A stretch of DNA of 64,000 bases from Chloroflexota bacterium (GTDB taxonomy: Bacteria > Chloroflexota > Dehalococcoidia > UBA2247 > RBG-13-53-26), in assembly GCA_026389585.1 (NCBI GenBank), contig JAPLHP010000036.1, positions 41,366-105,365 on the forward strand. Direction: 5' to 3'. The notes beneath the pieces were generated by a model, which was not told the DNA's origin, made no database searches, and worked only from the letters and a program-made list of their open reading frames with translations. A program made the translations under genes and the position numbers. Shown piece by piece: positions 35,880 through 60,921 of this stretch. Each line of letters begins with the position of its first letter. The stretch's first letter is position 1.

Positions 35880-36077
35880 ATCTCAGCCACCAACTGCCTT
35901 CTGAATGGTGGTGACGTGCTCTCTTTGCAGCAGATACTCGGGCACTCAAGCCTGGAGATGGTGCGGAGGTATGTGACGTTAGCGTCAGCCCGGGTCATGG
36001 TGCAACACAGGAAGTTCTCGCCGATGGACAGAATGAATCTTGGCAGAATGTGGCTGACTCGAGTGCCTCGCAACTAG
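35880..36077 (+). pseudogene. tyrosine recombinase/integrase C-terminal remnant
   Basis: LLNGGDVLSLQQILGHSSLEMVRRYVTLA matches the integrase C-terminal LGHsss.tT..Y.H region with catalytic Tyr. Upstream catalytic R/H boxes are degraded; only ~65 codons remain. Confidence 0.65.
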
Positions 36078-38858: not shown

Positions 38859-38910
38859 GAGTCATACACCAAGAAAATACTATGCAGAGAACAGCGTCGG
38901 CTGAGCCCGT

Positions 38911-39084
38911 CTACTTGCGCTTCGGAATCGTGTACGTTCCCTTTGCACCTTGATAGACGTTGAACTTCGACTTGCAGCTTTCGCACTCATAGCGCTTAAC
39001 ATCAGAGCTCCCGTACTTCCACGACCGAATGGGCTTGGTCGAGACAGGTCGACTACATATGGGGCAGTTTGTTGCAGTTACCAT
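38911..39084 (-). CDS. 57-aa zinc-ribbon protein inside the defense operon
   Basis: MVTATNCPICSRPVSTKPIRSWKYGSSDVKRYECESCKSKFNVYQGAKGTYTIPKRK. AAGGAGG RBS 7 nt upstream of the ATG. Below the ORF-table cutoff. Confidence 0.55.
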   Translation of the reverse strand: MVTATNCPICSRPVSTKPIRSWKYGSSDVKRYECESCKSKFNVYQGAKGTYTIPKRK

Positions 39085-39210
39085 ACAGACACCTCCTTGC
39101 CTGGTCCCTTATGGGTTGTCTACGTGACATATGGATGTATATTACTCTTCCTAAGAACAATTCTGCCAGTACCGCTCTGTAGGCCCGGATCGCGTTCTTG
39201 AATTCACTCG

Positions 39211-41976: not shown

Positions 41977-41983
41977 GGTCTCC

Positions 41984-44974: not shown

Positions 44975-44988
44975 GGTTCATCCCGAGT

Positions 44989-45732
44989 CTATTGAGAGCG
45001 GCTCGAATCTGACCCAAAGCCCAGCTGATTCGCCGCTTTTGCTCGCCGCGTTTTCCGTGACTTCCTGGCACTCCCTGTTGAGCTATGGGCTGTGCCCTCT
45101 TGAGCTGTAAGCTGGTCGGATTCGCTCATTGACTGGCTCACTAAGCGGAAGAACTCTGGCACAATCGGCTGATCGGGAGGACGGTCAGAGACCGGGTTCT
45201 CAGTCAGGGCAAATCGCACTGCCTTGCGCCAACCTCGCCCTCGGCCATCGGCGTAGCTGCCGGTAGCCGCCGCCGTCATGGTGTATAGCCACCAGCGCTC
45301 CTCGGGTGTCAGTCCCCGCCAGTTGGCGACCGCCGTAGGTATGAGGGCAGGGTCAGCATCTTCAAGAGCCCAGGTGAGGAGGGTCAGTTCTTTACCCAGC
45401 ATGCGGCTAACCGTATTGTAACCAGCTTTCCAGCGCCCCGGACGTTTGCCCTCTCTCTTGAGGCGCAAGTTGAACTCCGCGCGCACCAAGTCGGCGACTG
45501 CGTTCCATTTCGGCCGATCAAGTTGGCTTTTCACCTGGCCATCAAGACGCTCACCGTAGTGAACCGAATCGGCGATGCGATCGGGATCCCACGACAGATG
45601 TTCACTGATTGTGATGGGTTGCGTCGTGCCAGCAGGAATGTGAACCAGGAAATGGGAAACTGACTGGTTGGGGTCAAAGCCGAAAGTGTCGACAAGCACG
45701 TCCGGACTAGGTTTCTGGTTACGTTCAGCCAC
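44989..45732 (-). CDS. DUF3780-like protein (inferred from position between DUF499 and DUF1156 genes)
   Basis: 247 aa. Position and size match the DUF499-DUF3780-DUF1156-helicase arrangement predicted in defense islands. Family call relies on synteny, not verified motifs. Confidence 0.45.
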   Translation of the reverse strand: MAERNQKPSPDVLVDTFGFDPNQSVSHFLVHIPAGTTQPITISEHLSWDPDRIADSVHYGERLDGQVKSQLDRPKWNAVADLVRAEFNLRLKREGKRPGRWKAGYNTVSRMLGKELTLLTWALEDADPALIPTAVANWRGLTPEERWWLYTMTAAATGSYADGRGRGWRKAVRFALTENPVSDRPPDQPIVPEFFRLVSQSMSESDQLTAQEGTAHSSTGSARKSRKTRRAKAANQLGFGSDSSRSQ

Positions 45733-48700
45733 TATTGCCTCACCTCTGAAGCCTGATAGTCGGTCTTGTTCTCATTGATCCAGTCGAGGAACCCCTGCCC
45801 GCGCTCAAAGTGGAGGGCCGATACCTCGATACCGAGTTGACCTTCGTTGGTGAGCTTGCGGACGGCATCGGCGGCCTCCCGCAGGGCATCCGCACCAAGT
45901 TGGATCTTCTCATGCAGAGTGAGCTCAGCCCAACGGTTGCCCGTCACGCTGACCTTGATTCCACTCATGGACATGGGATGAGCCTTCAGTCTCTCCAGGA
46001 AACCATACGACTCGAGCGTGGTGTTAAACTCATGACGCCTGGTCCACGTCAGGGGTCTATCGGGGTCAATTTGCTTGTCCGTGTCGGGTCTGTCCCAAAG
46101 TATCTCGGCAGTCAACACTTCCGAGACGACGTCGCCGTGCATCGCTACCGCCAGGACGAACCGCGTGCCACGATGGACCTCGAAAGGCTCCTCGTAAGTA
46201 CCACCGGAAACCTTGGGGTCTGAGCCATCCGTGGTGTACTTGATCTCGGTGCGCCCGTCCTTGTTGGGGGCAGCTCGGAGCTCAACAATCTTGTTCCCTC
46301 TCTTGCCCGCGTAGGTCTTGTATTTCAAAGTCAGGCGGTTGCGCCACTTGTGATCCGGGCCAGAAGCATGCGTTCGCGTAGAATCCACGGCCAGAAACGA
46401 GACCTCCATTTCGCTCGTTCGATAAAGACCCTGCTCGACCTTCTGGGAGGCTTCCGTCGCATCAGCGCCGACTTCGGCGTACACAGTGTCGCCGTGCACA
46501 GGCGTAACCTTCAACTCCACCTCTCCAGTATCTTCATGGCGTGAGCGCTCCTGTATCTGCACCGAAGTGGTCTTGGGTGGTGGTGGGTTCCGGTCAACGT
46601 AGCCCGCCGGATCCTCGCGCCAGACCTCACGGTATACAAGATCATCCTTGATAGCATCGAGCGCCTCGCGACGGTGCCACTGCCACTGAGGGTTCATGGC
46701 AGCACGTCGCTTGACTTCGCTCCACAACATAACGGGTGTCGTAAACAGACGCGCTTCAATCTTCTTGCGGAATGTATCGCTCGTAACGTCTTCGGTGTAC
46801 TTCTGCTTGTCCTTCAAGACCTGGATGACCTGGTCCTCGCCGTTGTACTTGTTCCCCTCGTACTTCATCAGGAAGTCAGCAGAAAGGAAGACATCCGTAT
46901 CATTTTGACGGAAGGGGTAGTACAGAGTCGAGAATGTCTCTTTGACCGCTGAGAGGAACTGGCCCAGAATGCGATCCCGGAGTTCATCTGCCTGCTTGAA
47001 CTGAGGGTCCGTCTGAGGAGTCTTGTCCGCCTCCATTTCGTCGAGAATATGTTGGATAGCCTTGAGCCGCTTGGCGCTGTCGATTAGTGTGTCGAAGGTA
47101 TTGCGCGAACCCGTCAAGACGGCGATACGATTCTTGAAGGGAGTCTGCCCGTAGAATTGGACGAGTTGGGGGTTCAGACCCTGGCCAACGTAGGGCTCGG
47201 AGATGACGAGAGAGATGCGATCCTGGAACACTTGAATCTCGTCGATGGACGGCAGCACCAGTACTTCCTGATAGCACCAGCCCATCGGCGGTTTGAAAAG
47301 GGTCTTGAGGCGCTCTCTGAGTTCTTTCAATGCCTGTTCTCGGACATATGCAGTGGACAGCGACTCCAGCTTCGCGACGAGGTTCTGGACGTTCTTGAAG
47401 AACAGCCTGCCGTCACGATTGGAGTGGAGGTACCAGGCTGCAGTGGCAAGCTTCTCGAGAATATCGCTCTTGAGACGGGCCAGATTCCTACCGGGCGCGC
47501 AGAGGTAGCCCACCACTTCCGGGATGGTTAGGCCGACAACAGCATTCGGGACATTGGCCAGCGAAGACATGAAGATGAGCCGACATGCGTCCTGCGTGTC
47601 ATTCGTGCCCAGGTTCTGATCCATGACTTCGGCGACTGCTTTCCCCTGAGATGCAATATCGTGGGCCACGGCGTTGTCCAGTGTGGGGTTGATCTGGCGG
47701 ATTTCCGACAGGGTCTCGGGGTCGTTCAAGTCTATGTTGTGCACGCCAATGAGATACACCTTCTCCGCTTCCCCCGATTGCCACAGTCGCGAGGTGATGA
47801 TGCGCATCAGGCGGATCAGTGCACGGGTCTGCTGGAATCCGGGATTTTCACGAAAGCGTGCATACAGGTCTTTGATCGAAGGGTGGAACGGGTAACTGTC
47901 TTGGATGAACTGCGCAAACTTCTCTGGCGACTGGGCCGTAATGTCCATCTGTCGCGCCTCGCGGATGGCCTTGGCATATGCTTGGGCGACCTCTGTCACC
48001 TCCTCGTTTGGTGGCAGGTCCTTGAACAGGCGCTTCCGCAGGATGTGATAGAACTCATCTGTGTTGATTTGAACCGGCGTCAGGTTCATCGAGTGCCTTT
48101 GGGCCTCGCTCTGAAGCTGCTTCAGCAGGTCGGCGATCTGGGCACTAGCTTCGGCATAAGTGCCGACAAGGTCAGTCAGCACGATGCACACGTTGGCTAG
48201 CTCTTTCTCTGCGACTGCTTCGAAAAGGTTGGTCAGTGCTGTGGCCGTGACGTGCGAAAGATCTGAGTTGCCGACGGCGATTGACTTGGCGTTATCGAGG
48301 TAAGGTGGCAGTTCGTCGAGGAGTATCAGGGTAGGCTTGCCTTTGAGCAGGTTTATCCAGGCTGAGCGGCCCGGAGCCTTCAGCGGCGAATAGTAGTCCT
48401 TGAAGTCGGCATGTCTACCTATCTGACGCGCTATCTCTCCCCAGATACCGTGTGGAACGTCGGTTTCGCGGCCTGAGAAGGCAATGACTCGCACGGGTGG
48501 CAGCGCCTTCGCGCTTGGCAGTCCGGGCAGAACAGCTGCACGGAGTTCCGGATGCTTCGCCAACAGGCCAAGAGTGATGAGGTTATGTGTCTTGCCCCCA
48601 CCCATCGCCTGGGTGAGTTTGAATACTGCCTGCTCCGAACGACCCTCAAGTCGCCGGAGGGCCTCCATAAGCAGAGTTCGCATCCCGTCCGTGACATAGT

Positions 48701-48833
48701 TCTCTTCGAGGAAGGCCCTAGTGTCGATCTTGTCTTCGGCCAGATGCATCAGGTTGAGAACGGTGTCGCGACGAGCCGCGTCGAAGACGCTCTCGCGTGG
48801 TGTGCATAGGGTCTTGATCGATTTCATTTGCAC
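45732..48833 (-). CDS. DUF499 / BrxC-PglY-like P-loop ATPase
   Basis: 1033 aa, Walker A AMGGGKTHNL near the N-terminus, Walker B ILLDELPP. Size and architecture match DUF499. Confidence 0.7.
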   Translation of the reverse strand: MQMKSIKTLCTPRESVFDAARRDTVLNLMHLAEDKIDTRAFLEENYVTDGMRTLLMEALRRLEGRSEQAVFKLTQAMGGGKTHNLITLGLLAKHPELRAAVLPGLPSAKALPPVRVIAFSGRETDVPHGIWGEIARQIGRHADFKDYYSPLKAPGRSAWINLLKGKPTLILLDELPPYLDNAKSIAVGNSDLSHVTATALTNLFEAVAEKELANVCIVLTDLVGTYAEASAQIADLLKQLQSEAQRHSMNLTPVQINTDEFYHILRKRLFKDLPPNEEVTEVAQAYAKAIREARQMDITAQSPEKFAQFIQDSYPFHPSIKDLYARFRENPGFQQTRALIRLMRIITSRLWQSGEAEKVYLIGVHNIDLNDPETLSEIRQINPTLDNAVAHDIASQGKAVAEVMDQNLGTNDTQDACRLIFMSSLANVPNAVVGLTIPEVVGYLCAPGRNLARLKSDILEKLATAAWYLHSNRDGRLFFKNVQNLVAKLESLSTAYVREQALKELRERLKTLFKPPMGWCYQEVLVLPSIDEIQVFQDRISLVISEPYVGQGLNPQLVQFYGQTPFKNRIAVLTGSRNTFDTLIDSAKRLKAIQHILDEMEADKTPQTDPQFKQADELRDRILGQFLSAVKETFSTLYYPFRQNDTDVFLSADFLMKYEGNKYNGEDQVIQVLKDKQKYTEDVTSDTFRKKIEARLFTTPVMLWSEVKRRAAMNPQWQWHRREALDAIKDDLVYREVWREDPAGYVDRNPPPPKTTSVQIQERSRHEDTGEVELKVTPVHGDTVYAEVGADATEASQKVEQGLYRTSEMEVSFLAVDSTRTHASGPDHKWRNRLTLKYKTYAGKRGNKIVELRAAPNKDGRTEIKYTTDGSDPKVSGGTYEEPFEVHRGTRFVLAVAMHGDVVSEVLTAEILWDRPDTDKQIDPDRPLTWTRRHEFNTTLESYGFLERLKAHPMSMSGIKVSVTGNRWAELTLHEKIQLGADALREAADAVRKLTNEGQLGIEVSALHFERGQGFLDWINENKTDYQASEVRQ

Positions 48834-49247
48834 ATCCCTCCTGCCCCGGTCCCATCAGATTGCTCTGGCTGGGCGACCGCGGGCCGATTGTCAATTGTAT
48901 GCCTGATCACGAAATCCTGGCGAAAGCGGCAACATAGCGAAAACAAGGCCTTCTGACAATGCGAATTCTACGACTACCCTTGCTATTGTGCAAGGGATAC
49001 CCTTTTTGGAGCGTGCTCTCCAGGACGCAGATGAAGGGAGTTTGCAGGTAACGAAACAGCGAATTGTTGGATCACAATCTGGACTATTGTTCAACGTTCC
49101 AGCGCTCCGAAACGGCAGCTCTTCTCTTGAACTTGGCAATGATGTAGTATGCATGTAGAATTGGCCAGCACTAAGACGATTGCATTGAAGAGAAGATCGT
49201 AAACAGCGCCGTAATCTTCAGGGAAGATCGGAGGCAGCTAGTAGAAT

Positions 49248-50600
49248 ATGGAAGTGAGAGATCCTCTGTACGGTTTGGTGGAGTATGGGACAGATGAAGA
49301 GAAGATAATAAACAGCATCGTACTTCAGAGGTTGCGAAACATAAAGCAGCTTGCATTGGCTAGCGCTGTCTATCCTGGTGCACATCACTCGAGGTTTGAA
49401 CATAGTATTGGCACCATGCATTTGGCTGGGATGGTAGCGAAGAGGCTGGGGCTAGAAGCGGAAAGGCCTGTTCTGCGACTCGCTGGACTGCTGCATGATG
49501 TTGGGCATGGGCCGTTCTCTCATGTCTCTGAACAAGTTATGGAGGGATATGCAAGTGACATCATGGCCAAATATCATGCAGATGGCGTACACGAATTGAT
49601 CAGTATGATGCTTATTGAGAGGCTTGGCAGCTTGGCAGGAGTGACACTCGAAAGCGGTGTTACATCCGGGATATGCGAGCTTCTCAAGAAACAACCTAGA
49701 AGGTCTTTGCAGCAAGGCATCATCTCGGGTCCGTTGGATGTCGACAAACTTGACTATCTTCGGAGGGATAGCTACTTCGCCGGGGTTCAGTACGGAGCCT
49801 TTGATCTCGATAAGGTGATTCATAGCCTCACCAGGATAAGGATCAGTAGTGAAGAAGAACAACTAGGTTTTCATGAGGAGGGTGTCCATGCAGTTGAACA
49901 GCTCCTACTTGCAAAGTACCACATGAATGTGCAGGTCTATCAGCATAGGATTAGGCGCATAACTGATGCAATGCTGGTTAGTGGCATTAGGTTTGCCTTA
50001 GAGGAAGGAGTTGGTGAAGTCCAAAGGCTTTTCACTGTGGAGGATTCTGATGCTTACCTGCAGTACTATATCTCGAACAATGATAATACTCTCATGGACA
50101 CAGTCCTACAGAAAGGCAAGGAAGGGTCGAGAGAGCTGTTTCAGCGCATAAAGGAGCGCAAACTTCTGAAACAAGTGTTTTCACTCGAGATAAGCAGAGA
50201 CAACTTTCCAGACGCAGTTCAGATGGACAACATATTGCGCTTGTCTGATGCACAATTGCACCAGATAGCACAACGGGCAGTGGAACTCTATTCTGCAACA
50301 GATAGCAGGCTGGATCCAAACCTGGTCATAGTGGACAAACAGACCATCTCTAATCCAACCTTCAAATCACCTCAGACCAGCATTGATCAAGGCACGATAA
50401 TGGTAAAGACGAAGTCTGGACAGAGAAAGGCTTTCCCAGACATATCCACTATCTTTCGGAACCCTAGCATAGATCCCAAAGTCGAGGTTCTCTACGTCTA
50501 CTTGCCTCTGGATTGGCTCGGAAGCAAGGGGGACAGGGATGCGTTCATCAACCAAAGATATGATACAATGGCTGAACAAGTGATGGAGGTGGTCAAATGA
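49248..50600 (+). CDS. HD-domain phosphohydrolase of the dGTPase/SAMHD1-like family
   Basis: HSRFEHSIGT...LLHDVGHGPFSH...DKLDYLRRDSYFAGV motifs of dNTP triphosphohydrolase-type HD proteins. Confidence 0.75.
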   Translation: MEVRDPLYGLVEYGTDEEKIINSIVLQRLRNIKQLALASAVYPGAHHSRFEHSIGTMHLAGMVAKRLGLEAERPVLRLAGLLHDVGHGPFSHVSEQVMEGYASDIMAKYHADGVHELISMMLIERLGSLAGVTLESGVTSGICELLKKQPRRSLQQGIISGPLDVDKLDYLRRDSYFAGVQYGAFDLDKVIHSLTRIRISSEEEQLGFHEEGVHAVEQLLLAKYHMNVQVYQHRIRRITDAMLVSGIRFALEEGVGEVQRLFTVEDSDAYLQYYISNNDNTLMDTVLQKGKEGSRELFQRIKERKLLKQVFSLEISRDNFPDAVQMDNILRLSDAQLHQIAQRAVELYSATDSRLDPNLVIVDKQTISNPTFKSPQTSIDQGTIMVKTKSGQRKAFPDISTIFRNPSIDPKVEVLYVYLPLDWLGSKGDRDAFINQRYDTMAEQVMEVVK

Positions 50601-51196
50601 GATTGGACGATCTCGTCATACTGACGCTGCATTTCAGCGACAACAAGATGATTGCTGGTCGGACCCTCCTACAAAAGACCCTCTACTTCCTTAACGCAAA
50701 GCTTAATCTGGGCGTGGAATTTGCGTCTCACTACTATGGTCCCTATTCCTCCGACGTTGCTGAGTCAATTGCCCGTCTGAATTCTGCTGGTATTCTGGAG
50801 GAAAGCATTGAGTACCTCCAACCGCTGAGTTTTGGAGTGACTTTCGAGCCCAGAAGGTTTACATACAGGCTTACAGACACTGGAAAGAGCATAGCAGAGA
50901 TTGCCGAAAGACGGAATGAGACCGAAGCCGAAGCGATCAAGGGAATCCTTGATCGCATGAAGAATCTAGGCGTTGTGGATGACTACAAGAGCCTGTCTAT
51001 TGCAGCAAAGATGCACCGTATATTGAAGATCGAGAAGAAACCTATGACAGCCTCGCAGGTTCTGGAAGAGGCCAAAGCCTTAGATTGGAGAATAGAAAAG
51101 GGAGATGCTGATGGAGCAGTGGTTTTTCTCAAGGGGATGGACTTAGTCATGGAATTCGAGCATCCTGCTGCAGCGAATACAGCAACCACGGCTTGA
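50597..51196 (+). CDS. Panacea (DUF4065/SocA-like) domain protein, putative antitoxin
   Basis: LLQKTLYFLNAKLNLGVEFASHYYGPYSSDV matches the DUF4065 core (L.KLLYf...g..l....f.aw.yGPv...vy). ATGA overlap with the HD gene. Confidence 0.55.
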   Translation: MRLDDLVILTLHFSDNKMIAGRTLLQKTLYFLNAKLNLGVEFASHYYGPYSSDVAESIARLNSAGILEESIEYLQPLSFGVTFEPRRFTYRLTDTGKSIAEIAERRNETEAEAIKGILDRMKNLGVVDDYKSLSIAAKMHRILKIEKKPMTASQVLEEAKALDWRIEKGDADGAVVFLKGMDLVMEFEHPAAANTATTA

Positions 51197-51576
51197 GTTG
51201 CAAGTAAGCCTCCAGTTGAAATTGTGTTGATCTTGAACTAGTGATGACCTGTGTTAGGGGTCGGTTGCGCCTACACGCAGGACATTGAAGTCCATCCTCG
51301 GGCTTCTATGAGTTGACAAGACCACCCCACCAAGTGCATCCATTAGGAAGTCCTTGTATATTGGCATGCCATATTCCACATCGTCACGCGCTGTCTCTCA
51401 AGAGATGCTCCTTTCGGAGCAGCGACAGGGTCATTGGGTAATGCCAGTCTTTGGATGAAACAGGCTTCCGCAGGCTGGGTGTTGACCAGAAGGAGACAGA
51501 TTTGATCCTAGAAGAGATTACTGGGTAAGCCGAAATACGTGGATTCAGAAGCATAACGTTCTACATCCCCCACTGA

Positions 51577-51690
51577 GATTGCTTCGCTGCGCTCGCAATG
51601 ACACCGGCGGCTAACCCGCAATGACACCAGCGGCCAACCGGAATGACACGGCACACAAACCCCTGAGCCATAAGCGAGAAGAAATACGAT
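51577..51690. repeat. dispersed repeat family copy C (head plus three ~22-bp GCAATGACACCGGCGGCTAACC units)
   Basis: GATTGCTTCGCTGCGCTCGCAATGACAC head, then tandem units as in 55764-55975. Confidence 0.65.
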
Positions 51691-51727
51691 ATGTTCGGAG
51701 ATGTTTCCTAGCCATGGGTCAGCCCCA

Positions 51728-52228
51728 TTAGTCATGGGCCAGGCGGCGTATCGTTGCGTTTATGGAGTTGCTCTCACCTTGGGTGATCAAGCCGTCACGG
51801 ACCGCCAGCTTCAACAGGTCTCCTGTACCAAAGACAGCAATAGATAAACTCACAGCCTTACATGCTTCGCGTGCAAGGCCATCATCTGTCGCTATATCGT
51901 AGCCCCTGTTGCAGGCGATGGCTATTGACGCGGATTCGCCCAGCCCCAGCCTCCTTCCAAGGAGCAGGTTAGCATATATCGAGATTTCTTCCCCGGAGGA
52001 TTCATCAAGAGTAACCACGCAGATGGTACCGTCAACCTGCATCTGTGTTAGAAGAGCTATGAGATATTGCCCTCTACCGGGCCAGCGTGAGGCTTCCTGA
52101 AGGACCTGGCCGGTGATGCAGAAAGTGCCCTTTGGCCAGATTCCCAGCACTCGAGCTAGAGCTCCGGCAGAATACAGTCTTGAGACAACGTCGTTATCGA
52201 GGACAACAGGTCTGTTGAAAGGCGACAT
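51728..52228 (-). CDS. PIN-like domain protein (DUF4411-like), putative toxin partner of ImmA/IrrE
   Basis: 166 aa. N-terminal VVLDNDVV plus downstream acidic residues fit a PIN fold. ATG directly follows the ImmA stop. Confidence 0.5.
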   Translation of the reverse strand: MSPFNRPVVLDNDVVSRLYSAGALARVLGIWPKGTFCITGQVLQEASRWPGRGQYLIALLTQMQVDGTICVVTLDESSGEEISIYANLLLGRRLGLGESASIAIACNRGYDIATDDGLAREACKAVSLSIAVFGTGDLLKLAVRDGLITQGESNSINATIRRLAHD

Positions 52229-53377
52229 TCAGGCATCGCCTTCCTTACTTTCTCCACTAAGCTCGTCTCTGAGTTCGTAGTAGTTCCTCCTCAGGAGTTC
52301 GGCCAGCTTCTCAAATGAGACAAGTTTCGCCTTGTAAGCCTCGTATGCCAGATATTTGTAATGACGAGGAAGCATGTCAGGGGGATCCTCTCTGTCACAA
52401 TATCCCAGCAGGATGGCGATAGGTGATGTGGTGACTCGTTGAGTCATAATGCCTTGCCATCTGGAAAGCGAGAGCTTCCTGAGAGATACCAACCTCCAGC
52501 CGGTTGCTTCAAAGCTGGTGCCGAAATAAGTCGCTAGATGAAAGACGACCTCAGCCGTTGGGGCAGTTGTCTGTTTGGATACAAACTGGCTCAACATCTC
52601 ATTCATGGCGCGTCTGGGCATCAGGAAAGCAGCGGCAAATGCATTGGCGAAACGTTCGTGAGGACGCCGTGTCACAAATCCAGTGTCGGTGTCAATGTGA
52701 GCATGGGCTAACTGATTCCGATGGGCAATGCAGTGCCCATACTCGTGTGCCACAGTAAATGTGCGCCTCCGCTGAGGATGAAGTGAGTTGATTAGCAAGC
52801 AGGCGCCAAGGTCCTTGTCACACGCAAAAGCGCCGGAGAACCCTTGTGATTCCTCCGGCAGGTGAAATATCTTCACCCCCCTCTTCTTTTCCAGTAAGTC
52901 GCAAATATCCTTTATGGGCTGACTATCAAGGCCCATTGAGCTTCGCTCAGCCACTGCCAGGTCTTCGGCCTGTTCCAGTGTTGTTGGAGAAGCACTTGAG
53001 TAGTCAGGCGGCCCCGGCATCTCTGGCGCTCCCACGAGCTGCATCAGGTCTCGGTAGTCTTTGCATAAGTCTTGAAATCCGATGATTGTCTCCCGGGGAA
53101 CAGCTGCTGCTGAAGCAGCTCGGAGTAGAACGGAGAAGCAGGCACTGGACTCGTCCTGGTCAAAGAAGAAGGTCAGGGGACGATGATATAACTTGGCGAA
53201 CTTGTATAACTCTACGGCCGAGACACGTCGCTTCTGACTCTCAATGTCTGAGACGGTGGATGTTGCGAGGCCCATACTCTCGCCGACCTGGCTGAGAGTG
53301 AGTCCCAAGGCTGTTCTGGCTTGCCTCAGCATACGGCCGACTGCGACAGGCAAATCCGTCGTTGCACTAACAACCAT
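52229..53377 (-). CDS. XRE-HTH + ImmA/IrrE-family (COG2856) zinc metallopeptidase
   Basis: N-terminal HTH (LGLTLSQVGESMGLATSTVSDIESQKR). HExxH motif HEYGHCIAH. Confidence 0.75.
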   Translation of the reverse strand: MVVSATTDLPVAVGRMLRQARTALGLTLSQVGESMGLATSTVSDIESQKRRVSAVELYKFAKLYHRPLTFFFDQDESSACFSVLLRAASAAAVPRETIIGFQDLCKDYRDLMQLVGAPEMPGPPDYSSASPTTLEQAEDLAVAERSSMGLDSQPIKDICDLLEKKRGVKIFHLPEESQGFSGAFACDKDLGACLLINSLHPQRRRTFTVAHEYGHCIAHRNQLAHAHIDTDTGFVTRRPHERFANAFAAAFLMPRRAMNEMLSQFVSKQTTAPTAEVVFHLATYFGTSFEATGWRLVSLRKLSLSRWQGIMTQRVTTSPIAILLGYCDREDPPDMLPRHYKYLAYEAYKAKLVSFEKLAELLRRNYYELRDELSGESKEGDA

Positions 53378-53489
53378 GTTTGCCCTCCTTCAGCCGACTT
53401 CGGAAAAGTACAACATTATTGGATTCGAGAGCATTTTATCACACGAATTTTCGGAGGTCAACATTTGTTGCATTGCGCCAGAGGCACAT

Positions 53490-53629
53490 AGCAGCCGTTC
53501 CTGTCACTTCAGGGCGGCGACGACTTTATTGGTTTGTCTTTCTAAGGCTTCCAAGGAAGACTCGTTGGTGATAGTGAAGTCTGCCATGGCGATGGGCCCA
53601 CCTTTGTTGAGCTCCTGTATCTCCATCGC
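53490..53629 (-). pseudogene. diverged remnant of the 3' end of the UPF0200 kinase gene (att-like scar)
   Basis: Encodes MEIQELNKGGPIAMADFTITNESSLEALERQTNKVVAALK, ~88% nt identical to the 3' end of 58694-59236 including 14 bp past the stop. Starts right at the AbiEii stop. Confidence 0.7.
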
Positions 53630-54523
53630 TCAATTTCCTTCTGAATCGGTTTCGGCTCTTGCGGGAAAGAGTTCCTTCAGGGCTGACATAAATTCATCAA
53701 GCTGCAAACCGGGGCGATAATAAGGGCTTTCCCTCAATCGGATCATGCCCGGATGGTCGAGGGCGGAGAAGTGTTTCAAGACCAGACGTCCTGCCTCCAT
53801 AATGTATGGATCGTCTCCGTACTGATGGCGCAATTCAAGGGCATGTTTCCACTCCGTCTCCATGGTCGTCGCCAGGATGGTGTACATATCCAGGGCATGG
53901 TAGCGACCGAATTCCTTGTTGGCATCGTTGAGCCGGTCCTTGAAGGCGAATAGTTTCATCATCAGGAACGTGTAGGGTTGCGGAAGAAAGACCTCAGCTT
54001 GCCAGGGCTCGCCTGAACTGAGTTTCCCATTCAGCGTTTCCGGCAACAGCCCTTCTTCCAACGTCGGAACTTCGTCGACGGGATGGGCGTGAATGCCAAC
54101 GGAAGGATCGGGCCGGGCACGGCGGGTGTCCGTTTTCACCCGTGTGCCCTCAAAACGGCTTTGCGGACCGGTAAGGATGTCTATCTTGACGCTGCCTGCC
54201 TGAGCGCCTCCAGGACCGAGCTTCATAAACTGGTATTTCTCTGCGCCGCGAACAACCTTATAGCCCAGCCTGGCAATGGCCTCTGCCAGTGGTTTCAATT
54301 TTGCTGACTGGATGAGCAGTTCCGGACGTAGAAACAAATCAAGGTCGTTGGTGGAACGTGCTTCAGGCCATTCACGGAAGAGTGTTGGCGCACCGAGGCG
54401 GCGCACGTAATCGGCCTTGAGGTAGATGCCAAAACCGCCGCCAATGATGAGTCTGATATCCGCGCCTTGCACTTCGTAGAGCAGATCGAGCAACGCCGTT
54501 TGAAGGTCGGGGATCGTGATCAT
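53630..54523 (-). CDS. AbiEii/DUF1814-like nucleotidyltransferase (type IV TA toxin family)
   Basis: 297 aa, NTase motif IIGGGFGIYL...NDLDLFL. Overlaps the upstream gene by 4 nt. Confidence 0.55.
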   Translation of the reverse strand: MITIPDLQTALLDLLYEVQGADIRLIIGGGFGIYLKADYVRRLGAPTLFREWPEARSTNDLDLFLRPELLIQSAKLKPLAEAIARLGYKVVRGAEKYQFMKLGPGGAQAGSVKIDILTGPQSRFEGTRVKTDTRRARPDPSVGIHAHPVDEVPTLEEGLLPETLNGKLSSGEPWQAEVFLPQPYTFLMMKLFAFKDRLNDANKEFGRYHALDMYTILATTMETEWKHALELRHQYGDDPYIMEAGRLVLKHFSALDHPGMIRLRESPYYRPGLQLDEFMSALKELFPARAETDSEGN

Positions 54524-55671
54524 TGCTGCTCTCGGTGAAGATTCACCAAGAGGAACGACTTCACCTGTTCGGCAGTCTCCCGGTCACGCTTGTCGCCGGC
54601 CATCAACTCCAAATACACCTGCACAGGGGAGGCCCACCAGAAGTTTCCCTCCTGCCGGGCATCGAAGTAGACCGTTTCATCCTCTGTCTCGACGACTTCA
54701 AGGTTCGGGAAGCGATCCGACTGACTCCCAGACAGCCGCTCCAGCAGCATCTCCAAACGCGGGCAGTAGACAGAGAACAGATCCCCTCGCTGCATCACGG
54801 CATATTGCGCCACCGATGATGTCCCTGCAGCCACAAGGGGCAGGCCCAATTCCAGCGACTGCTTTTGCAGCGATTCCCGGATCGTTCCGTTCCCTTCCGA
54901 GACTTTGAGGCGGACTCGCTCCCTGATTTTCGGAGGGACATAGTTGTCACTCAGTTTTTCCAGAAGTTTGTCGGGTTGCAGCAGGCAAATGGTACTCTTG
55001 CGCTCGACGACCAAATCCTCCCCCAACGTCTTCAACACTTTCGACACCGTCGACAGGCTCATGGGCCTCGTAGCCCAACGGTTCACCAGCATGTTTCGCC
55101 GGTTGATCTCGGCGCAAATCTCTTGAACGGTGTCGTAGCTGGAACGGGCGAGGAAGACCCTGCCAACCATGGAACTGTTCTTCCGATAGATGTTCTTGAT
55201 CGGTGCTGAGGAGGAAAAACAGTTCTTCTCGCCGCTGCGGAACAGGGCAAACATGCCCGGCACAACCACCACGCCGTTACCGCACAGGTCTATGCCGCTG
55301 ATGCCTTCCCGCTCCAGCTCCTGCAGTTGCCGTTCACTGAGGAAAGGCATGATAAGCATAGGCCGGTAGCTCTTCGGGAGCGACAATAGTTTCAGCAGGT
55401 TGAGCCCATCCTGAAACGCCTTGGGCGTCGATAGGGATTTGCATTCGACGGCGAACTTTGCCGTGCTCTCACGCCATGATACCTCAATCAATGCATCGAG
55501 GCGACGGTTTCCGCCTGCTTCAGGCTGACTCTCCAGGAAGCGAAAAGACAGCGGAGGCAGTGAGACTTTACCTCTCCGAAGCTGTTCAATCATCTCCCTC
55601 TCTGTTGTCATTTTCCTGATGCTTTTCATTTTCCTAAACAAGAAAATAGCAGTTTTTAGGAAAACATGCAA
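54520..55671 (-). CDS. putative AbiEi-like antitoxin/regulator (hypothetical)
   Basis: 383 aa, upstream of and overlapping the NTase gene as in AbiEi/AbiEii pairs. No motif verified by eye. Confidence 0.35.
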   Translation of the reverse strand: MHVFLKTAIFLFRKMKSIRKMTTEREMIEQLRRGKVSLPPLSFRFLESQPEAGGNRRLDALIEVSWRESTAKFAVECKSLSTPKAFQDGLNLLKLLSLPKSYRPMLIMPFLSERQLQELEREGISGIDLCGNGVVVVPGMFALFRSGEKNCFSSSAPIKNIYRKNSSMVGRVFLARSSYDTVQEICAEINRRNMLVNRWATRPMSLSTVSKVLKTLGEDLVVERKSTICLLQPDKLLEKLSDNYVPPKIRERVRLKVSEGNGTIRESLQKQSLELGLPLVAAGTSSVAQYAVMQRGDLFSVYCPRLEMLLERLSGSQSDRFPNLEVVETEDETVYFDARQEGNFWWASPVQVYLELMAGDKRDRETAEQVKSFLLVNLHREQQ

Positions 55672-55679
55672 GTCTTATC

Positions 55680-55763
55680 TTACGGGTTACGGCTCAGGGC
55701 TGCGATGACTTTATTGGTTTGCCTTTCCAGGGCTTCTAGAGAGGATTCGTTGGTGATAGTCGA
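55680..55763 (-). pseudogene. second remnant of UPF0200 kinase gene 3' end
   Basis: Encodes ...TITNESSLEALERQTNKVIAALSRNP. Closer to the 53490 remnant than to the intact gene. Confidence 0.65.
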
Positions 55764-55975
55764 GATTGCTTCGCTGCGCTCACAATGACACCAGCGGCTA
55801 ACTGCAATGACACTGCGGCTAACCAGCAATGACACCGGCGGCCAACCAGCATGACACGGTGACCAACCGGAATGACACAGTGGGCAATATGCCACCATGA
55901 CACTCATGCAGTTTGTCACCCTGAGCGAAGGCGAAGGGTCTCCCCTCACAAAGCGAATGACGCCTATTCCTGCAT
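55764..55975. repeat. dispersed repeat family copy D (longest tandem array)
   Basis: GATTGCTTCGCTGCGCTCACAATGACAC head, ~6 tandem 21-23-bp CAATGACACNGCGGCTAACC units, GTCACCCTGAGCGAAGGCGAAGGGTCTCCCCTCACAAAGCGAATGACGCCTATTCCTGCA tail shared with copy A. Confidence 0.7.
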
Positions 55976-55991
55976 CCAGGCACCAGGCGTC

Positions 55992-56696
55992 CTACTGTTT
56001 CGCTGCCTGCGCGGGTATTCTGTAGGGACAGGTTGCCCTGAGGTTGCAGTGAGCACACACGTCGGCCTGTGTCCAGGTCGACATCCGTGGGCCTATGCCA
56101 ATGACCATGGAGAGGGACTTCAGCGGAATCATCATCCCTGTGGAGGTCAGACTGACTCCGATTTCGTTAGCAGGCACCAGCCCGAACAATTGCTGCTGTT
56201 CCGAAAGGGGAAACCCAGGCATGCCCGGGTTGAGAGGACTGCTGGCCTGGCAATTGCGGAATGATGCCTCACGAGTCACGATACGGCACACCTCCAGGTT
56301 CAAAGCATCCACAGCAGCACTTCCGATGCCATCAAGCAGCAGCCCCCGCAAGGGTTCACTCTTGCTGAAGCACATCTTTGACTCCTGCTCCAACCTCGGA
56401 CCAATAGTGCAGACCGCGACAGCAAGCTCCCGAGCCTCCGGAAAAAATGAAGGAACCAGCGGCCCATGAACGACTGTGCTCCCCTGCAGTGTCAACTGGT
56501 CATGGGTTTTCTCAGTTATGGGGTGGATTTCATAGGCGACGGCTGGCTCTAACAGATGCTCACAGTCTACTTTGGCCAGCAGCTCATTGACTAACTTGCC
56601 AATCTCAGGCCTCAGCCGAGAGTATTCGCTCACTCCTTCCCGACGAAACACTGCCTGGGTTGTCAGGCTCAGGGTGATATCACGTACTACAGTCAT
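55992..56696 (-). CDS. methionine-synthase B12 activation-domain-like protein (putative corrinoid activation/accessory protein)
   Basis: 234 aa, in an operon with a corrinoid protein and an MtaA-like methyltransferase. C-terminal Cys motif CAHCNLRATCP. Family assignment tentative. Confidence 0.35.
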   Translation of the reverse strand: MTVVRDITLSLTTQAVFRREGVSEYSRLRPEIGKLVNELLAKVDCEHLLEPAVAYEIHPITEKTHDQLTLQGSTVVHGPLVPSFFPEARELAVAVCTIGPRLEQESKMCFSKSEPLRGLLLDGIGSAAVDALNLEVCRIVTREASFRNCQASSPLNPGMPGFPLSEQQQLFGLVPANEIGVSLTSTGMMIPLKSLSMVIGIGPRMSTWTQADVCAHCNLRATCPYRIPAQAAKQ

Positions 56697-56881
56697 CCCT
56701 TTACCCTTCCATTGGCTGAGGGGCAGTCCACGAGAAGCATTCCTGCGAGGATACCTCTCGTGGCAGACACGAACCGGAATCAGGCACGAAAGCCATCCTG
56801 ACAGTACGGCCTTTCCAACACAATCGAACCGGTGGCGCTCTCTGGCATCGAAGACCTTTCACTGCTCACGCAGTGAGGAAG

Positions 56882-58030
56882 CTATCTTCCAGACAATTCG
56901 TAGCTCTTAGCAGTCTCAATCATAGCCCTGAAGTTTTCCGGCTTGCAGTTGGGTGGTGTAGCGCAACCGGTCCCGAGGATGAACCCTCCCCCTTTGCCAA
57001 CTTCATCAATGAGCTTCCGGCAATAGGCTGCCACCTCCTCCGGCTTGCCCAGGGACAGCAGCGACGCCGGAACGTCACCGTAAATGCAGAGGTGGTCCCG
57101 CAGGATTTCCTTGGCCAAGAAGATGTTGGTGGTACTGTCGAGCCCCACCACCGCGGACCCCTTCGGAAGCTTCCGCAAGTAGGGAAGGTTCTTGTTCCAG
57201 CATGTATCCAAGTGAAAGATGGTAGTGATCCCCTCGGACCAGAAAGCGCCAATGATCTCCTGCGTGTAAGGCCACCAGAACCGCTCGAAGACGGACAAAG
57301 GGTAGTTTAAGCCGGAGGCTCGCTCATCAACGAACAGCCATGACTTCATGCCAAACGCTTTACAGACACCGATCTGCTTCGGAATCAGTTCGGCCGTCAT
57401 CTTCTTCATGGCTCTTTCCACCGGCGCGGGATTGTAATAGATGTCTTTGGTAAACGGGATCATAGAGCGCATAAGCGACAGCCTGAAGAATGGGTGAAAC
57501 TCATGGGCAGCAAGGAACGGTTCGATCCGCCTCTTCTTCAGTTCCTCGGTGTATGTACCCCAGTTTGTCAGCGTTTCCCACAGGTGAGTCTGCAGCTCGT
57601 CGGGCCGGAAGCTGGCGATCCGCCACAGATAGTCCTTGTAGTAGAACGCGTCAGCCCCCATTTCACAAAGCTTCTCGTAGTCCTCAGGTTTCATAACTTC
57701 TTCTTCCAGGAGCTGGAACATATAGTCGTCGGGCAGGTCCTTTCCTGGAATCCGCATCTTCATCGGATATATGTTGGCTGCCTGCGATTGAACCGGTGTG
57801 ATCGGTCCGCCATAAGCACAGTCCCAACCTCCACAATCATCGAACACTTTGAAGAACGCCGCCTGTGCCATCTTGGCGTCATTGCTGACCTGAGCCATGG
57901 TCATGCCTGCAAGATGCGCTGCGGGCTCCGGGCTGAGGAATGGGACTATGGGGACGCGGTCCGTTTTCTCCAGTCTGGTGGCCGCCCACGTTCTCTCGGT
58001 GGAGGTCATGGTTTCCCTGGCCATCTTCAC
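56882..58030 (-). CDS. uroporphyrinogen-decarboxylase-family (MtaA/CmuA-like) corrinoid methyltransferase
   Basis: 382 aa URO-D fold protein adjacent to a B12-binding protein. Confidence 0.6.
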   Translation of the reverse strand: MKMARETMTSTERTWAATRLEKTDRVPIVPFLSPEPAAHLAGMTMAQVSNDAKMAQAAFFKVFDDCGGWDCAYGGPITPVQSQAANIYPMKMRIPGKDLPDDYMFQLLEEEVMKPEDYEKLCEMGADAFYYKDYLWRIASFRPDELQTHLWETLTNWGTYTEELKKRRIEPFLAAHEFHPFFRLSLMRSMIPFTKDIYYNPAPVERAMKKMTAELIPKQIGVCKAFGMKSWLFVDERASGLNYPLSVFERFWWPYTQEIIGAFWSEGITTIFHLDTCWNKNLPYLRKLPKGSAVVGLDSTTNIFLAKEILRDHLCIYGDVPASLLSLGKPEEVAAYCRKLIDEVGKGGGFILGTGCATPPNCKPENFRAMIETAKSYELSGR

Positions 58031-58659
58031 TTCCCTCCTATCACATTCAGGCAGTAGGCTACGCCTTCCATGGCGTCCAGAGTCTGGAAGTCAGCTCCGA
58101 CGTAGTCCCTCGTCATGGGGGTGGTCACTCCCCCTCCGATCATCAGTTTCGTATTTTTCCTCAGCCCGGCTTCTTGAAGCATCCGGGCAGCCTCCTTCAT
58201 GCTGGGGAAAGCCGTGGTGATGAGCGCTGAGAACCCGACAAACCGAGGCTTGACCTTCTTCACCTCCACCAGCACGCGGGACGGCGGCACGTCCACGCCC
58301 AGATCGTGCACTTCAAAGCCGTGAGCCTGCAGCAGGGTAGCCACGATATCCTTGCCCAGGTTGTGGATGTCGCCCTGCAGCGTAGCCAGCACGACCCTGG
58401 CCAGGGGCTTTTCAGGACGCAACCTGGCCAGGTGCGGTTGCAGTATATTCATCGCTTCTTTGAAGATTTCGGCGGAAAGCATCAGTTCGGCCAGAAAGTA
58501 ATCGCCTTTCTGAAAGCGCTCGCCAACAGTGCTCATGCCATGACGGCATTCTTCCAGGATCCGGAGGGGTTCCTCGCCTTTCTCCAGCCTGGATCTGACA
58601 GCCTGCACCGCCTCATCACGCTTCAACTCGACAATAGCCATGCTAAGTTCTTCAGACAT
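58027..58659 (-). CDS. corrinoid (cobalamin-binding) protein, MtaC-like
   Basis: 210 aa. B12-binding motif GDIHNLGKDIV (DxHxxG). N-terminal helical cap domain. Confidence 0.8.
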   Translation of the reverse strand: MSEELSMAIVELKRDEAVQAVRSRLEKGEEPLRILEECRHGMSTVGERFQKGDYFLAELMLSAEIFKEAMNILQPHLARLRPEKPLARVVLATLQGDIHNLGKDIVATLLQAHGFEVHDLGVDVPPSRVLVEVKKVKPRFVGFSALITTAFPSMKEAARMLQEAGLRKNTKLMIGGGVTTPMTRDYVGADFQTLDAMEGVAYCLNVIGGK

Positions 58660-58693
58660 TTGGCCTCCTTGTTTCCTCAGGCAGCCGTTCCTG

Positions 58694-59236
58694 TCACTTC
58701 AGGGCTGCAACGACTTCTCTGGTCTGTCTTTCCAGGGCTTCTAAAGAAGATTCGTTGGTGATGGTGAAGTCTGCCATGGCGATGGGCCCACCTTTGCTGA
58801 GCTCTTCGATCTCCGCCATGTCCCGGCCGGCAGCTTCATCAAGCGTCAGGGGGCGGATGGGCCTTTTCGTCAACCTCTGATATCGTGTCTGGGGAGAGGC
58901 CCAAACTGCCACCACGGTAAAACGGCCGCCGTAGCGGTCCTTCAACAGAGTGTATTCTTCCCATGAGTAGAGGCCGTCCACAACGACATCAGCCGATTTG
59001 AGGAGGCGATCAATCCTGGGCAGGCTGAGCCTGGCATAAGCTGACATTCCATGCTCTTTTCTGAGTTGTCCCCTGACATACCGTTCGTTTTTCTCGTTCA
59101 GCTCGAGCCCTCTTTCCCTGACCTCTTCATCGGTAATATCGCCGAACCTGACTCTCACAAAGCCGCTATTTTCAAATACTCTGGCTACCTCTGATTTGCC
59201 CGAGCCTGCCATACCAACAATCGATACCACTTTCAT
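58694..59236 (-). CDS. UPF0200-family P-loop nucleotide kinase-like protein (archaeal dephospho-CoA-kinase-like)
   Basis: 180 aa, P-loop VGMAGSGKSEV. Its 3' end has diverged copies at 53490-53629 and 55680-55763. Confidence 0.6.
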   Translation of the reverse strand: MKVVSIVGMAGSGKSEVARVFENSGFVRVRFGDITDEEVRERGLELNEKNERYVRGQLRKEHGMSAYARLSLPRIDRLLKSADVVVDGLYSWEEYTLLKDRYGGRFTVVAVWASPQTRYQRLTKRPIRPLTLDEAAGRDMAEIEELSKGGPIAMADFTITNESSLEALERQTREVVAALK

Positions 59237-59239
59237 GGT

Positions 59240-60801: not shown

Positions 60802-60871
60802 CGTTCGCGCCCTCCCTGCTGAAGTATTGACATGACCGGTGCAACCAGGCACCAGTCAGCGTAACAACCGA

Positions 60872-60921
60872 GATTCTTCGCTGCGCTCAGAATGACACCC
60901 ATTTCTGCCACCAAGCACTAG
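60872..60921. repeat. dispersed repeat family copy E (50-bp miniature: head + tail only)
   Basis: GATTCTTCGCTGCGCTCAGAATGACAC joined to ...CCAAGCACTAG, matching the head and tail of copy A (7225-7460). Confidence 0.6.

Follow-up and report, generated by a model that had tools for sequence, protein, structure and literature searches.

Introduction

Small non-coding elements with terminal inverted repeats are represented in bacteria by MITEs of the IS630/Tc1-mariner type or the IS5 type, cyanobacterial Nezha being an example. In the BrickBuilt MITE of Porphyromonas gingivalis, a non-coding intergenic element, a 'leader' and a 'tail' with short inverted ends surround a spacer-less minisatellite of imperfect units of about 23 nt (Klein et al. 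2015, PMC4596501). BrickBuilt copies number in the tens per genome and contain from 1 to 22.8 units each, and many lack the leader or the tail (PMC4596501). The REP/REPIN/BIME elements form another group, whose mobility is due to RAYT transposases (Nunvar et al. 2010, PMC2817692; Bertels and Rainey 2011, PMC3116915).

Two further precedents bear on gene units that stand beside a conserved gene. In the ssrA islands of Dehalococcoides and in ICE/CIME accretion at fda, tandem islands lie at the 3' end of such a gene. Homology-facilitated illegitimate recombination, reportedly described in 2002 by de Vries and Wackernagel and by Prudhomme and co-workers, is the second precedent, and its classical cases delete recipient DNA. 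The term is used in PMC6382021.

Here we describe copy D, one copy of a repeat family in a 64,000-nucleotide stretch of DNA from an uncultured member of the Dehalococcoidia, hereafter the window. Copy D occurs at a junction within a defence island, where it touches the remnant of a kinase gene. We conclude, with a probability of roughly 0.6, that it represents a dispersed, non-coding, MITE/REPIN-like mosaic element in decay and truncated on its left side, which was carried as cargo and cut by a recombination join, and that it is neither an att site nor a general boundary marker.

Results

Anatomy of copy D

Copy D (Table 1) is dominated by tandem units of about 22 nt (CAATGACACCAGCGGCTAAC and its variants) present in 4.5 copies. 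Tandem Repeats Finder placed this array at 55783-55880 with a period of 21-22 and a score of 94-111, the top-scoring array of the window; corresponding arrays in copies A (7282-7345) and C (51594-51649) comprised 2.7 and 2.5 copies, respectively. The string AATGACAC occurs 11 times in the window versus 1.67 expected, a count reached in 0 of 100 shuffles. Three units quoted in the first-pass annotation were exact, at 55783-55804, 55805-55825 and 55826-55847. Its description of D as the longest copy is true of the array, which is the largest regular one, and not of the whole element, copy A being longer (272 versus 227 nt).

Table 1. Position and character of repeat copies, their parts and neighbouring genes in the window.
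Feature	Position	Strand	Description
Copy A	7189..7460	+	Complete canonical element with both terminal inverted repeats, 272 nt
Variable region (defence island)	35443..58671		23 kb, between the kinase gene and a Polbeta nucleotidyltransferase gene
Copy C	~51534..51680	+	Different left module, perfect GC-type head, 2.5 type-1 units, degenerate tail
Kinase 3' remnant 1	53491..53624	-	Equals kinase 58814-58681, stop codon plus 13 nt beyond; 88% over 134 nt
Two-gene module (383 aa, 297 aa)	53623..55690	-	Exactly between the two kinase remnants
Kinase 3' remnant 2	55694..55760	-	Equals kinase 58762-58699; 86% over 64-67 nt; truncated at the end fused to copy D
Copy D	55760..55986	+	Left-truncated mosaic: head hairpin, tandem units, tail hairpin, right terminal inverted repeat
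Copy D, head hairpin module GAGATTGCTTCGCTGCGCTCACAATGAC	55762..55789	+	GC-type stem ATTGC/GCAAT with one C.A mismatch
Copy D, four type-1 tandem units of 21-22 nt (CAATGACACCAGCGGCTAACYG)	55783..55868	+	Each repeats the inner end of the head hairpin
Copy D, type-2 units (AATGACACAGTGGGCAATATGCCACCATGACAC...)	55869..55914	+	As in copy A and related metagenome copies
Copy D, tail hairpin module GTCACCCTGAGCGAAGGCGAAGGGTCTC	55915..55942	+	Inverted stem-variant of the head, stem ACCCT/AGGGT
Copy D, linker CCCTCACAAAGCGAATGAC then right terminal inverted repeat GCCTATTCCTGCATCCAGGCACCAG	55943..55986	+	Weak terminator-like hairpin on the minus strand
B12 unit	55992..58659	-	B12-binding protein 58027-58659; URO-D/MtaA-like methyltransferase 56882-58030; ORF 55992-56696
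AAA_18-type nucleotide kinase gene, intact	58694..59236	-	Last ~130 nt (58681-58814) copied in both remnants
Copy E	60869..60921	+	Internal-deletion derivative, head fused to right end at GAATGAC direct repeats

Copy D aligns with copies A and E and with a copy in the close relative L121 from the head through the terminal GCACCAG. The left arm, whether of the kind found in copy A or that found in copy C, is missing, and D is therefore not intact. The mismatch in the head stem arises because D reads ACAAT; a perfect counterpart of this head module is located in copy C at 51575-51602. The type-1 unit was confined to copies C and D, occurring in 0 of 241 fetched loci, so that these two copies have a private unit type as well as a head type in common. 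Judged by module sequence, copy D is a chimera in which the GC-type head and type-1 units are C-like and the type-2 units, tail and right end are A-like. The private sharing between C and D hints at a local relationship, which our preferred reading can cover only by regarding the two, speculatively, as allelic donor and recipient copies.

Several known kinds of repeat were compared with D and set aside. Its units run head to tail without the spacers of a CRISPR array, and iterons and protein coding were ruled out on anatomy. As for an integron attC site, the strings GGCTAAC and GGCCAAC each deviate by one base from the consensus (RYYYAAC ... GTTRRRY), and no integrase was found.

The repeat family and its instability

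Self-comparison revealed four family copies in the window (A, C, D and E), all on the plus strand, and these were aligned with 13 metagenome copies retrieved by a 24-nt tail string, most of them from the same sample as L121. Window and metagenome copies have common ends and modules and span 50-330 nt. The canonical element is non-coding, 150-330 nt long, and is ordered as left end CTAGTGCCTGGTTGCACAAGTAAGCGTAACAATC, head hairpin GAGATTCTTCGCTGCGCTCAGAATGACAC, variable interior, tail hairpin (GTCACCCTGAGCGAAGGCGAAGGGTCTC), linker (CCCTCACAAAGCGAATGAC) and right end GCCTATTCTTGCAACTAAGCACTAG. Outer inverted ends of about 20-26 nt (CTAGTGCCTGGTTGCACAAG...CTTGCAACYAAGCACTAG) are present in copy A and most metagenome copies, and D has the right one only. 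Inside them, the head and tail hairpins are inverted versions of a single 27-nt module. Between the hairpins lies a variable run of units of about 22 nt, and every unit begins anew with AATGACA(C), the sequence on which the head hairpin closes (its AATGACAC end); the type-2 unit CATGACAGTGGGCAATATGTCAC is found in copy A, in the right half of D and in metagenome copies. Modeled as single-stranded DNA, copy A forms one long hairpin of -46 kcal/mol (z = -3.87), with 0 of 200 shuffles folding as well. Copy C lies between convergent defence genes, and its left module also occurs in an insertion in L121.

The family thus described is small, non-coding and multicopy (4 copies in 64 kb plus 13 in metagenomes), has terminal inverted repeats, and displays presence/absence polymorphism, all features of MITEs. 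Site E contains about 50 nt in the window versus a full element of about 200 nt in L121, with flanks 96-98% identical. The difference is exactly a clean deletion between the AGAATGACA of the head and the CGAATGACA of the linker, at GAATGAC repeats. Likewise, the orthologue of site A in L135 has fewer internal units between flanks that are 97-98% identical. We infer that the array would grow and shrink by slippage or unequal recombination among AATGAC(A) direct repeats. In L121 and L123, a cluster of these modules of about 500 nt, mixed with GTAG-type REPs, separates the deaminase gene from the kinase gene; in the window and in L122 the cluster is absent and the two genes are 4 nt apart. A 35-nt imperfect duplication that restores the kinase start flanks this insertion, which is a cluster and not a single element. 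Module clusters are interrupted and nested in L121, L131 and L134.

Most copies are bounded on both sides by CTAG, and the copy in L129 by CTGG on both sides; CTAG could itself belong to the inverted repeat. The terminal CTAG supplies the TAG stop codon of the flanking gene at E (AFOR) and in L131 (PSP1). Insertion looks like a transposition in trans that would use CTAG/TA as its target, frequently with the TAG of a stop codon as the exact site, and the ends would fit an IS630-type or IS5-type transposase, supplied in trans, that targets TA or CTAG. Neither a cognate transposase nor an autonomous IS with matching ends (TGCCTGGTTGCACAAG) was detected in the window or the 241 fetched loci, so the in-trans step can only be inferred. 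Among the fetched loci, the outer inverted repeat was seen only in the elements themselves and never flanking a transposase.

A hairpin module conserved across phyla

The 27-nt module has the form GTC-A-NNNN-GAGCGNAGCGA(A)-N'N'N'N'-T-CTC, in which a stem of 5 bp leads through tandem G.A pairs and then two G-C pairs to a GNA triloop. The head 23-mer CTTCGCTGCGCTCRSAATGACAC was matched exactly at more than 120 loci belonging to at least 16 phyla among the matches listed. These included Bacteroidota, Bacillota, Pseudomonadota, Chloroflexota, Verrucomicrobiota, Acidobacteriota, Planctomycetota, Armatimonadota, Nitrospirota, Omnitrophota, Fibrobacterota and the candidate phyla radiation (CPR). Cultured carriers of the module include Hymenobacter sp. 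ISL-91 and Inquilinus limosus DSM 16000. A 21-nt version of the module pattern was present in 96 viral contigs. By estimate, about 0.07 module matches are expected by chance in 596 Gb.

Stem pairing was tested on 177 units that were anchored on the loop only, with scan seeds excluded. Perfect 5-bp stems were found in 56 of 177 units versus a mean of 7.1 (maximum 13) when partners were shuffled, indicating that pairing is under selection. Six stem types were recovered, including ATTGC/GCAAT, ATTCT/AGAAT, ATCCT/AGGAT and ACCCT/AGGGT, and the changes between them are compensatory. All but one of the perfect units (55/56) have a 5' GTC, the module beginning GTCA. Units occur for the most part in inverted doublets, with 97 tail-to-head (spacer mode 18 nt) and 29 head-to-tail. 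The succession of head, reiterations of about 22 nt and inverted tail also occurs in the unrelated loci L007, L013, L022, L027, L087 and L100.

The module matched little in annotated resources. Searches of annotated plasmid and phage collections returned only two unannotated Calothrix plasmid matches and no isolate phage. Rfam 15 returned nothing but two tRNAs at the gathering threshold across the whole window, and nothing at E <= 10 in 55650-56050. Neither a published account nor an annotation of the hairpin module was found in open-access text, where sequence strings matched irrelevant primers only and keywords led to general papers on REPs and MITEs and to that on BrickBuilt. In 216 loci, the sole recurrent neighbours, with transposases among those sought, were phage structural proteins, among viral contigs. 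It is possible, and we propose it tentatively, that the 27-nt module represents an unrecognised pan-bacterial structured element.

The position of the module relative to genes bears on whether copy D could be a functional cis-element, either terminating or stabilising the 3' end of B12 operon transcripts or serving the two-gene module as an operator-like or iteron-like array for protein binding. Across phyla the module favours gene 3' ends, lying between convergent genes 38 times versus divergent genes 10 times. Read on the minus strand, the right terminal inverted repeat of D gives a weak hairpin resembling a terminator, with CATTCGCTTTG after it, 5 nt past the stop of ORF 55992-56696; the minus-strand RNA fold has a z of -2.76; and a period of 22 nt approximates two helical turns. 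However, the terminator match has only a 5-bp stem, with 2 such matches found versus 0.5 expected, and D has no Rfam match. The family is dispersed beside unrelated genes in both orientations, its array length varies between strains at orthologous sites, and the two-gene module in L240 keeps its upstream region without any array. We therefore regard a cis-acting role as distinctly unlikely.

Kinase remnants and gene units at the junction

Homologues of the kinase assign the source organism to the Dehalococcoidia/Chloroflexota. The gene order ferredoxin, deaminase, kinase of the window is also that of the close relatives L121 and L122. In both relatives the kinase is followed by a type I R-M island of 8 kb, beyond which correspondence with the window resumes at 35443; 35443-58671 is thereby defined as a variable region. 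In the window this region encodes GmrSD, a PLD-helicase / DUF1156 / DUF3780 / DUF499 system, a dGTPase-like HD protein, a DarG-like protein, a PDC-S70 protein and an RmrA/CapP-like regulator, in addition to the two-gene module and the B12 unit. No integrase or recombinase domain was detected in any of its ORFs with Pfam, PADLOC, NCBIfam or PHROGs.

Within the variable region, the two kinase remnants match one another and the live gene at 85-88% identity. Their breakpoints differ, falling at 58814 in remnant 1 and at 58762 in remnant 2 (kinase positions), and the sequences at the junctions bear no relation to each other, with only 1-2 nt of microhomology at the joins as read from the sequence. 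Copy D touches remnant 2, since the remnant ends at 55760 and the D head begins at 55762. The remnant fused to this hairpin is about 52 nt shorter at that end than remnant 1. On its other side D is followed by the stop of ORF 55992-56696 and then by the URO-D and B12-binding genes. The first-pass annotation had placed D at an island junction, against the second kinase remnant and next to the B12 methyltransferase unit; this arrangement is confirmed, and the junction runs exactly through the element.

The two-gene module had no match in Pfam, NCBIfam, PHROGs, PADLOC or PDB, and exact-protein look-up of the kinase and the 297-aa protein returned no record. The B12-binding protein was matched on short contigs only. 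An AbiE-like identity was unsupported by HMM libraries or PDB search; that reading is a guess prompted by a GG..S.D.D nucleotidyltransferase-like motif. The module is 85% identical over 2069 nt to positions 6834-8901 of L240, where the context is unrelated, with no kinase-like flank and with a MalK-like gene apparently split by the insertion. There the module still has the upstream region that belongs to it, from window position 55690 onward, and lacks an array. In the window, the upstream join of the module falls at kinase position 58699, 3 nt before the stop, and would have turned ...AALK* into ...AALSRNP*. Kinase sequence resumes at 58814 at the downstream join, and thus about 116 nt of kinase sequence are duplicated, the two copies of this stretch being only 85% identical. 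Compared with L122, the window is 96-98% identical in the deaminase gene and about 85% identical in the last 180 nt of the kinase gene.

These junctions permit site-specific tandem accretion to be considered, the main rival among the alternatives to an illegitimate join. An integrase supplied in trans would target the kinase 3' end, and integrase-less, cis-mobilisable units bounded by att sites would accumulate there. The units would be the B12 genes with D and then the two-gene module, the remnants would be attR scars, and D would lie in the attP-proximal end. Three direct, same-orientation copies of the 3' end of one gene, each directly preceding a gene unit, are what such accretion would leave. 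The two-gene module is moreover a discrete unit that also exists elsewhere, the site is a hot spot in relatives, and the layout is like that of the ssrA islands in Dehalococcoides and of ICE/CIME accretion at fda in Streptococcus. However, the remnants start at different places and no core is common to the junctions, the copies are 12-15% diverged, and 35443-58671 contains no integrase or recombinase domain. Neither the R-M island of L121 and L122, at whose site no second kinase copy is present, nor the L240 module, with its lack of a kinase-like flank, fits the model. Accretion would need both a recombinase in trans and later deletion to account for the differing breakpoints, and we consider it unlikely. 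The remnants had been called att-like scars, a description that is doubtful given their different starts, their 85-88% identity and the lack of an integrase in the 23-kb region. Formal membership among att sites fails on the same grounds, with no identical core at the junctions.

Distribution of copies relative to boundaries

Other copies of the family were not concentrated at island boundaries. Copy E is situated between the AFOR and ferredoxin genes, an arrangement syntenic in L121, and the 13 metagenome copies flank ordinary genes, such as those for LigA, HisB, an ABC transporter, radical SAM, PSP1, CoA-transferase and similar proteins. No orientation rule relative to flanking genes or GC skew was found. 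In the window, no copy is present at the kinase-B12, remnant 2-module or module-remnant 1 junctions or at the far island border at 35443. The pair of B12-binding and URO-D genes recurs in the more distant L139 and L140 (76% nucleotide identity) in other contexts and without the element. The element is scattered between ordinary genes of a Dehalococcoidia-like lineage and is no boundary marker or director of insertion. The window has about six module junctions, and of its copies D alone, with C as a possible second, coincides with one. The earlier suggestion that the repeat travels with, or is targeted by, inserted units survives in a trivial sense, D having most likely arrived on the segment with the B12 genes, and is abandoned for the repeat as marker or target.

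Discussion

How copy D came to the junction

Given the differing breakpoints, the 85-88% identity and the lack of an integrase, we prefer homologous recombination on one side, completed by an illegitimate join, to an att site as the explanation. Defence and accessory modules would be swapped at a hot spot downstream of the conserved deaminase and kinase genes. Recombination of incoming modules would be anchored by homology in these two genes, and an illegitimate join to the resident kinase, at its 3' end, would seal the far, heterologous end. Each such event would strand a remnant of the previous kinase allele, and the two remnants suggest two successive events of the same kind. In the most recent, the incoming fragment would have comprised the 3' end of today's kinase together with the B12 genes and D. 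On the donor side it would have broken at the foot of the D head hairpin, which would then have been joined to the resident kinase at 58762. A donor genome in which the kinase, the B12 genes and a full D follow in that order was not among the sequences recovered. Because the donor break passes through D, the element would be cargo cut by the join. Copy D would thus owe its place at the junction to a sloppy recombination join that happened to cut through it, and not to any ability to mark or direct insertion. That an illegitimate-join process operates at the kinase 3' end is our reading of the junction sequences. Both proposed joins fall within about 120 nt of the kinase stop, a proximity that would also be expected from a site-specific system with later deletion.

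Homology-facilitated illegitimate recombination offers a likeness in its single anchor (here deaminase/kinase), its closure at 1-3 nt of microhomology near the end of homology, its independence of a recombinase and the decay of identity toward the insert. At this locus the join would lie upstream of the end of homology, so that a stretch of the anchor is duplicated, unlike the deletions of the classical cases. Tandem islands at ssrA and fda also resemble the locus in that direct 3'-end copies separate successive cargo units downstream of a gene, here in a Dehalococcoidia-type genome. They differ in that no integrase was found here, breakpoints vary and copies are 12-15% diverged.

The location of the proposed donor break, exactly at the foot of the D head hairpin, raises the alternative that the element is a recombination target, its hairpins causing breaks or stalled forks or being recognised by a hairpin-specific enzyme, with islands joined there preferentially. 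The loop of the module holds a GCGNAGC mini-hairpin motif, extraordinarily stable in DNA and reviewed in PMC13037366. The loop reads as tandem G.A pairs around this motif, and such pairing is not captured by standard folding parameters. Module clusters that are interrupted and nested in L121, L131 and L134 would suit a target, as would the presence of both C and D at module junctions inside the island. On the other hand, this is one breakpoint in one element, four other junctions of the island have no element, and most copies occupy stable, syntenic intergenic sites. Folding with standard nearest-neighbour DNA parameters gave single hairpin modules no significant, let alone exceptional, stability. 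We judge a preferred target to be unlikely. The remaining comparisons concern the kind of element of which, by our preferred reading, D is a severed copy.

Comparison with known elements

By analogy, the closest architecture is that of BrickBuilt. Both have a leader and tail with inverted ends, a variable, spacer-less array of units of about 22-23 nt and frequent partial copies, a likeness that is architectural only. The IS5-like end of BrickBuilt, GAGACCTTCGCA, resembles the GAGACCCTTCGC at the start of the tail hairpin described here. In contrast, the units of the two elements have no homology, and the pan-bacterial range of the hairpin module differs from that of BrickBuilt, which is confined to Porphyromonas. 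The units here reiterate the inner end of the hairpin itself, the outer ends (TGCCTGGTTGCA...) are flanked by CTAG, and no matching IS was found.

In behaviour, the closest analogy would be with the REP/REPIN/BIME group. Elements of both kinds are short imperfect palindromes, mostly intergenic at gene 3' ends, that form inverted doublets and mosaics, and enterobacterial REP loops also contain GCGNAGCG. They differ in that REPs have a 5' GTAG, where the module has GTCA, and are normally lineage-specific, where the module is cross-phylum. The window does encode a RAYT (1971-2456; NF047646, 110.7 bits), but it is flanked by classical GTAG REPs of the GTAGGGACAG type and not by the module. No RAYT/Y1 transposase recurred beside modules in 216 loci. 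REP/REPIN membership is therefore rejected on two defining features, the GTAG being missing and the RAYT of the window being flanked by another REP family, although inverted doublets forming long hairpins are present.

MITEs of the IS630 and IS5 types resemble the family in size, terminal inverted repeats, CTAG at both ends, lack of coding capacity and multiple copies. The CTAG ends could reflect duplication of TA inside a CTAG target, as for IS630, or duplication of all 4 bp of CTAG, as for IS5. Long nested hairpin modules and an internal minisatellite are atypical of such MITEs, and no parent IS was found in the window or 241 loci.

Implications

The 27-nt module is conserved almost base for base across phyla, is absent from the RNA and repeat resources queried, and, if indeed undescribed, merits systematic study. 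Were it a pan-bacterial structured element, it would imply either a universal host partner, such as an RNA- or single-stranded-DNA-processing enzyme, or a mobilising enzyme of very broad host range. Elements such as copy D would then be lineage-specific shells built around the module. For the locus itself, the analysis removes the tempting inference that the repeat marks an att site or an island boundary. If the preferred history is true, the nested remnants record the order of acquisition, with the B12 unit newest and the two-gene module before it, and the locus would provide a natural case, from uncultured Dehalococcoidia, in which homologous recombination on one side is combined with an illegitimate join. 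The region downstream of the kinase could then be read as a layered hot spot for defence and accessory genes, each layer leaving a dated remnant of the previous kinase allele.

Composition of the defence island

The window contains a 23-kb defence island (table below). In addition to a GmrSD type IV restriction gene and a PLD-helicase/DUF1156/DUF3780/DUF499 system, the island encodes a dGTPase-like HD protein, a DarG-like protein, a PDC-S70 protein and an RmrA/CapP-like HTH-M78 regulator. Two close relatives (L121 and L122) carry a type I restriction-modification system and an Mrr-like gene in its place.

Features of the window
Feature	Position	Strand	Details
Defence island	35443-58671		23 kb
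GmrSD type IV restriction gene	36942-38858		in defence island
PLD-helicase/DUF1156/DUF3780/DUF499 system	39211-48833		in defence island
Two-gene module	53623-55690; locus L240, 6834-8901		383 aa + 297 aa; 2.07 kb
REP-associated tyrosine transposase (RAYT) gene	1971-2456	minus	161 aa; Pfam Y1_Tnp; NCBIfam NF047646, 110.7 bits
Neighbouring tRNA-Arg(TCG) and tRNA-His(GTG)	27049-27202	minus

The two-gene module is a discrete 2.07-kb moving unit. At L240, the second locus harboring it, a MalK-like ABC ATPase gene seems to be interrupted by the module. Neither protein matched an entry in Pfam, NCBIfam, PHROGs, PADLOC or PDB. At a threshold of E ≤ 1e-5 the 297-aa protein has 1152 homologues; identity is 75–86% among the top 120. 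Because the 297-aa protein contains a nucleotidyltransferase-like GG..S.D.D motif, the module may, judging from sequence, encode a toxin-antitoxin or defence pair.

NCBIfam has a model for the anti-phage dCTP deaminase, a kinase-deaminase fusion; the window's conserved pair of deaminase and kinase genes (58694-59806) matched it weakly and in part (29.8 bits, far below cut-off). More distant relatives have the opposite gene order, kinase then deaminase, with no island downstream. In L121 (2360-2920), and also in L123, a repeat-module cluster of ~500 nt has entered the kinase gene 7 codons from its start. An imperfect 35-nt duplication with 3 mismatches restores the ribosome-binding region and start codon at this cluster; thus, the kinase is rescued by a long duplication, as it is at its 3′ end.

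Repeat families and element copies

The 27-nt hairpin module found within the dispersed repeat element has the form GTCA-stem-GAGCGNAGCGA-stem-TCTC in genome and viral contigs (loci L001-L120 and L144-L223). Searches with exact 23-mers recovered it from bacteria of at least 16 phyla, as well as from 96 viral contigs. Stem variants are compensatory, modules occur as inverted doublets spaced 18 nt apart, and convergent gene ends are the favoured location. Rfam holds no family for the module, and no annotation covers it at the genome and viral loci where it was found.

Paired classical REP hairpins (GTAGGGACAGACCTTCAGGTCTGTCC) lie on either side of the RAYT gene (region 1733-2580) and are a second repeat family in the window, besides the AATGACAC elements. 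Classical REP copies adjoin AATGACAC elements at four loci (L121, L131, L134 and L138).

Directly left of element copy A, a 92-nt stretch (7098-7189) is missing at the orthologous L135 site, where the conserved flank passes directly into the left end of the element. This stretch may be a remnant of another element. Elsewhere in the window, the tRNA pair displayed no unusual feature.

Element copies C (51575-51652) and D (55762-55839) show 87.5% identity over 80 nt, and only these two combine a GC-type head with the type-1 tandem unit (GCGGCTAAC). Both have the same orientation, and the 4.1 kb between them is a block of the PDC-S70 and RmrA genes, remnant 1, the two-gene module and remnant 2, the remnants being partial copies of the kinase 3′ end. 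Copies C and D may represent a single element in its donor and recipient alleles; alternatively, they may have arisen by local duplication.
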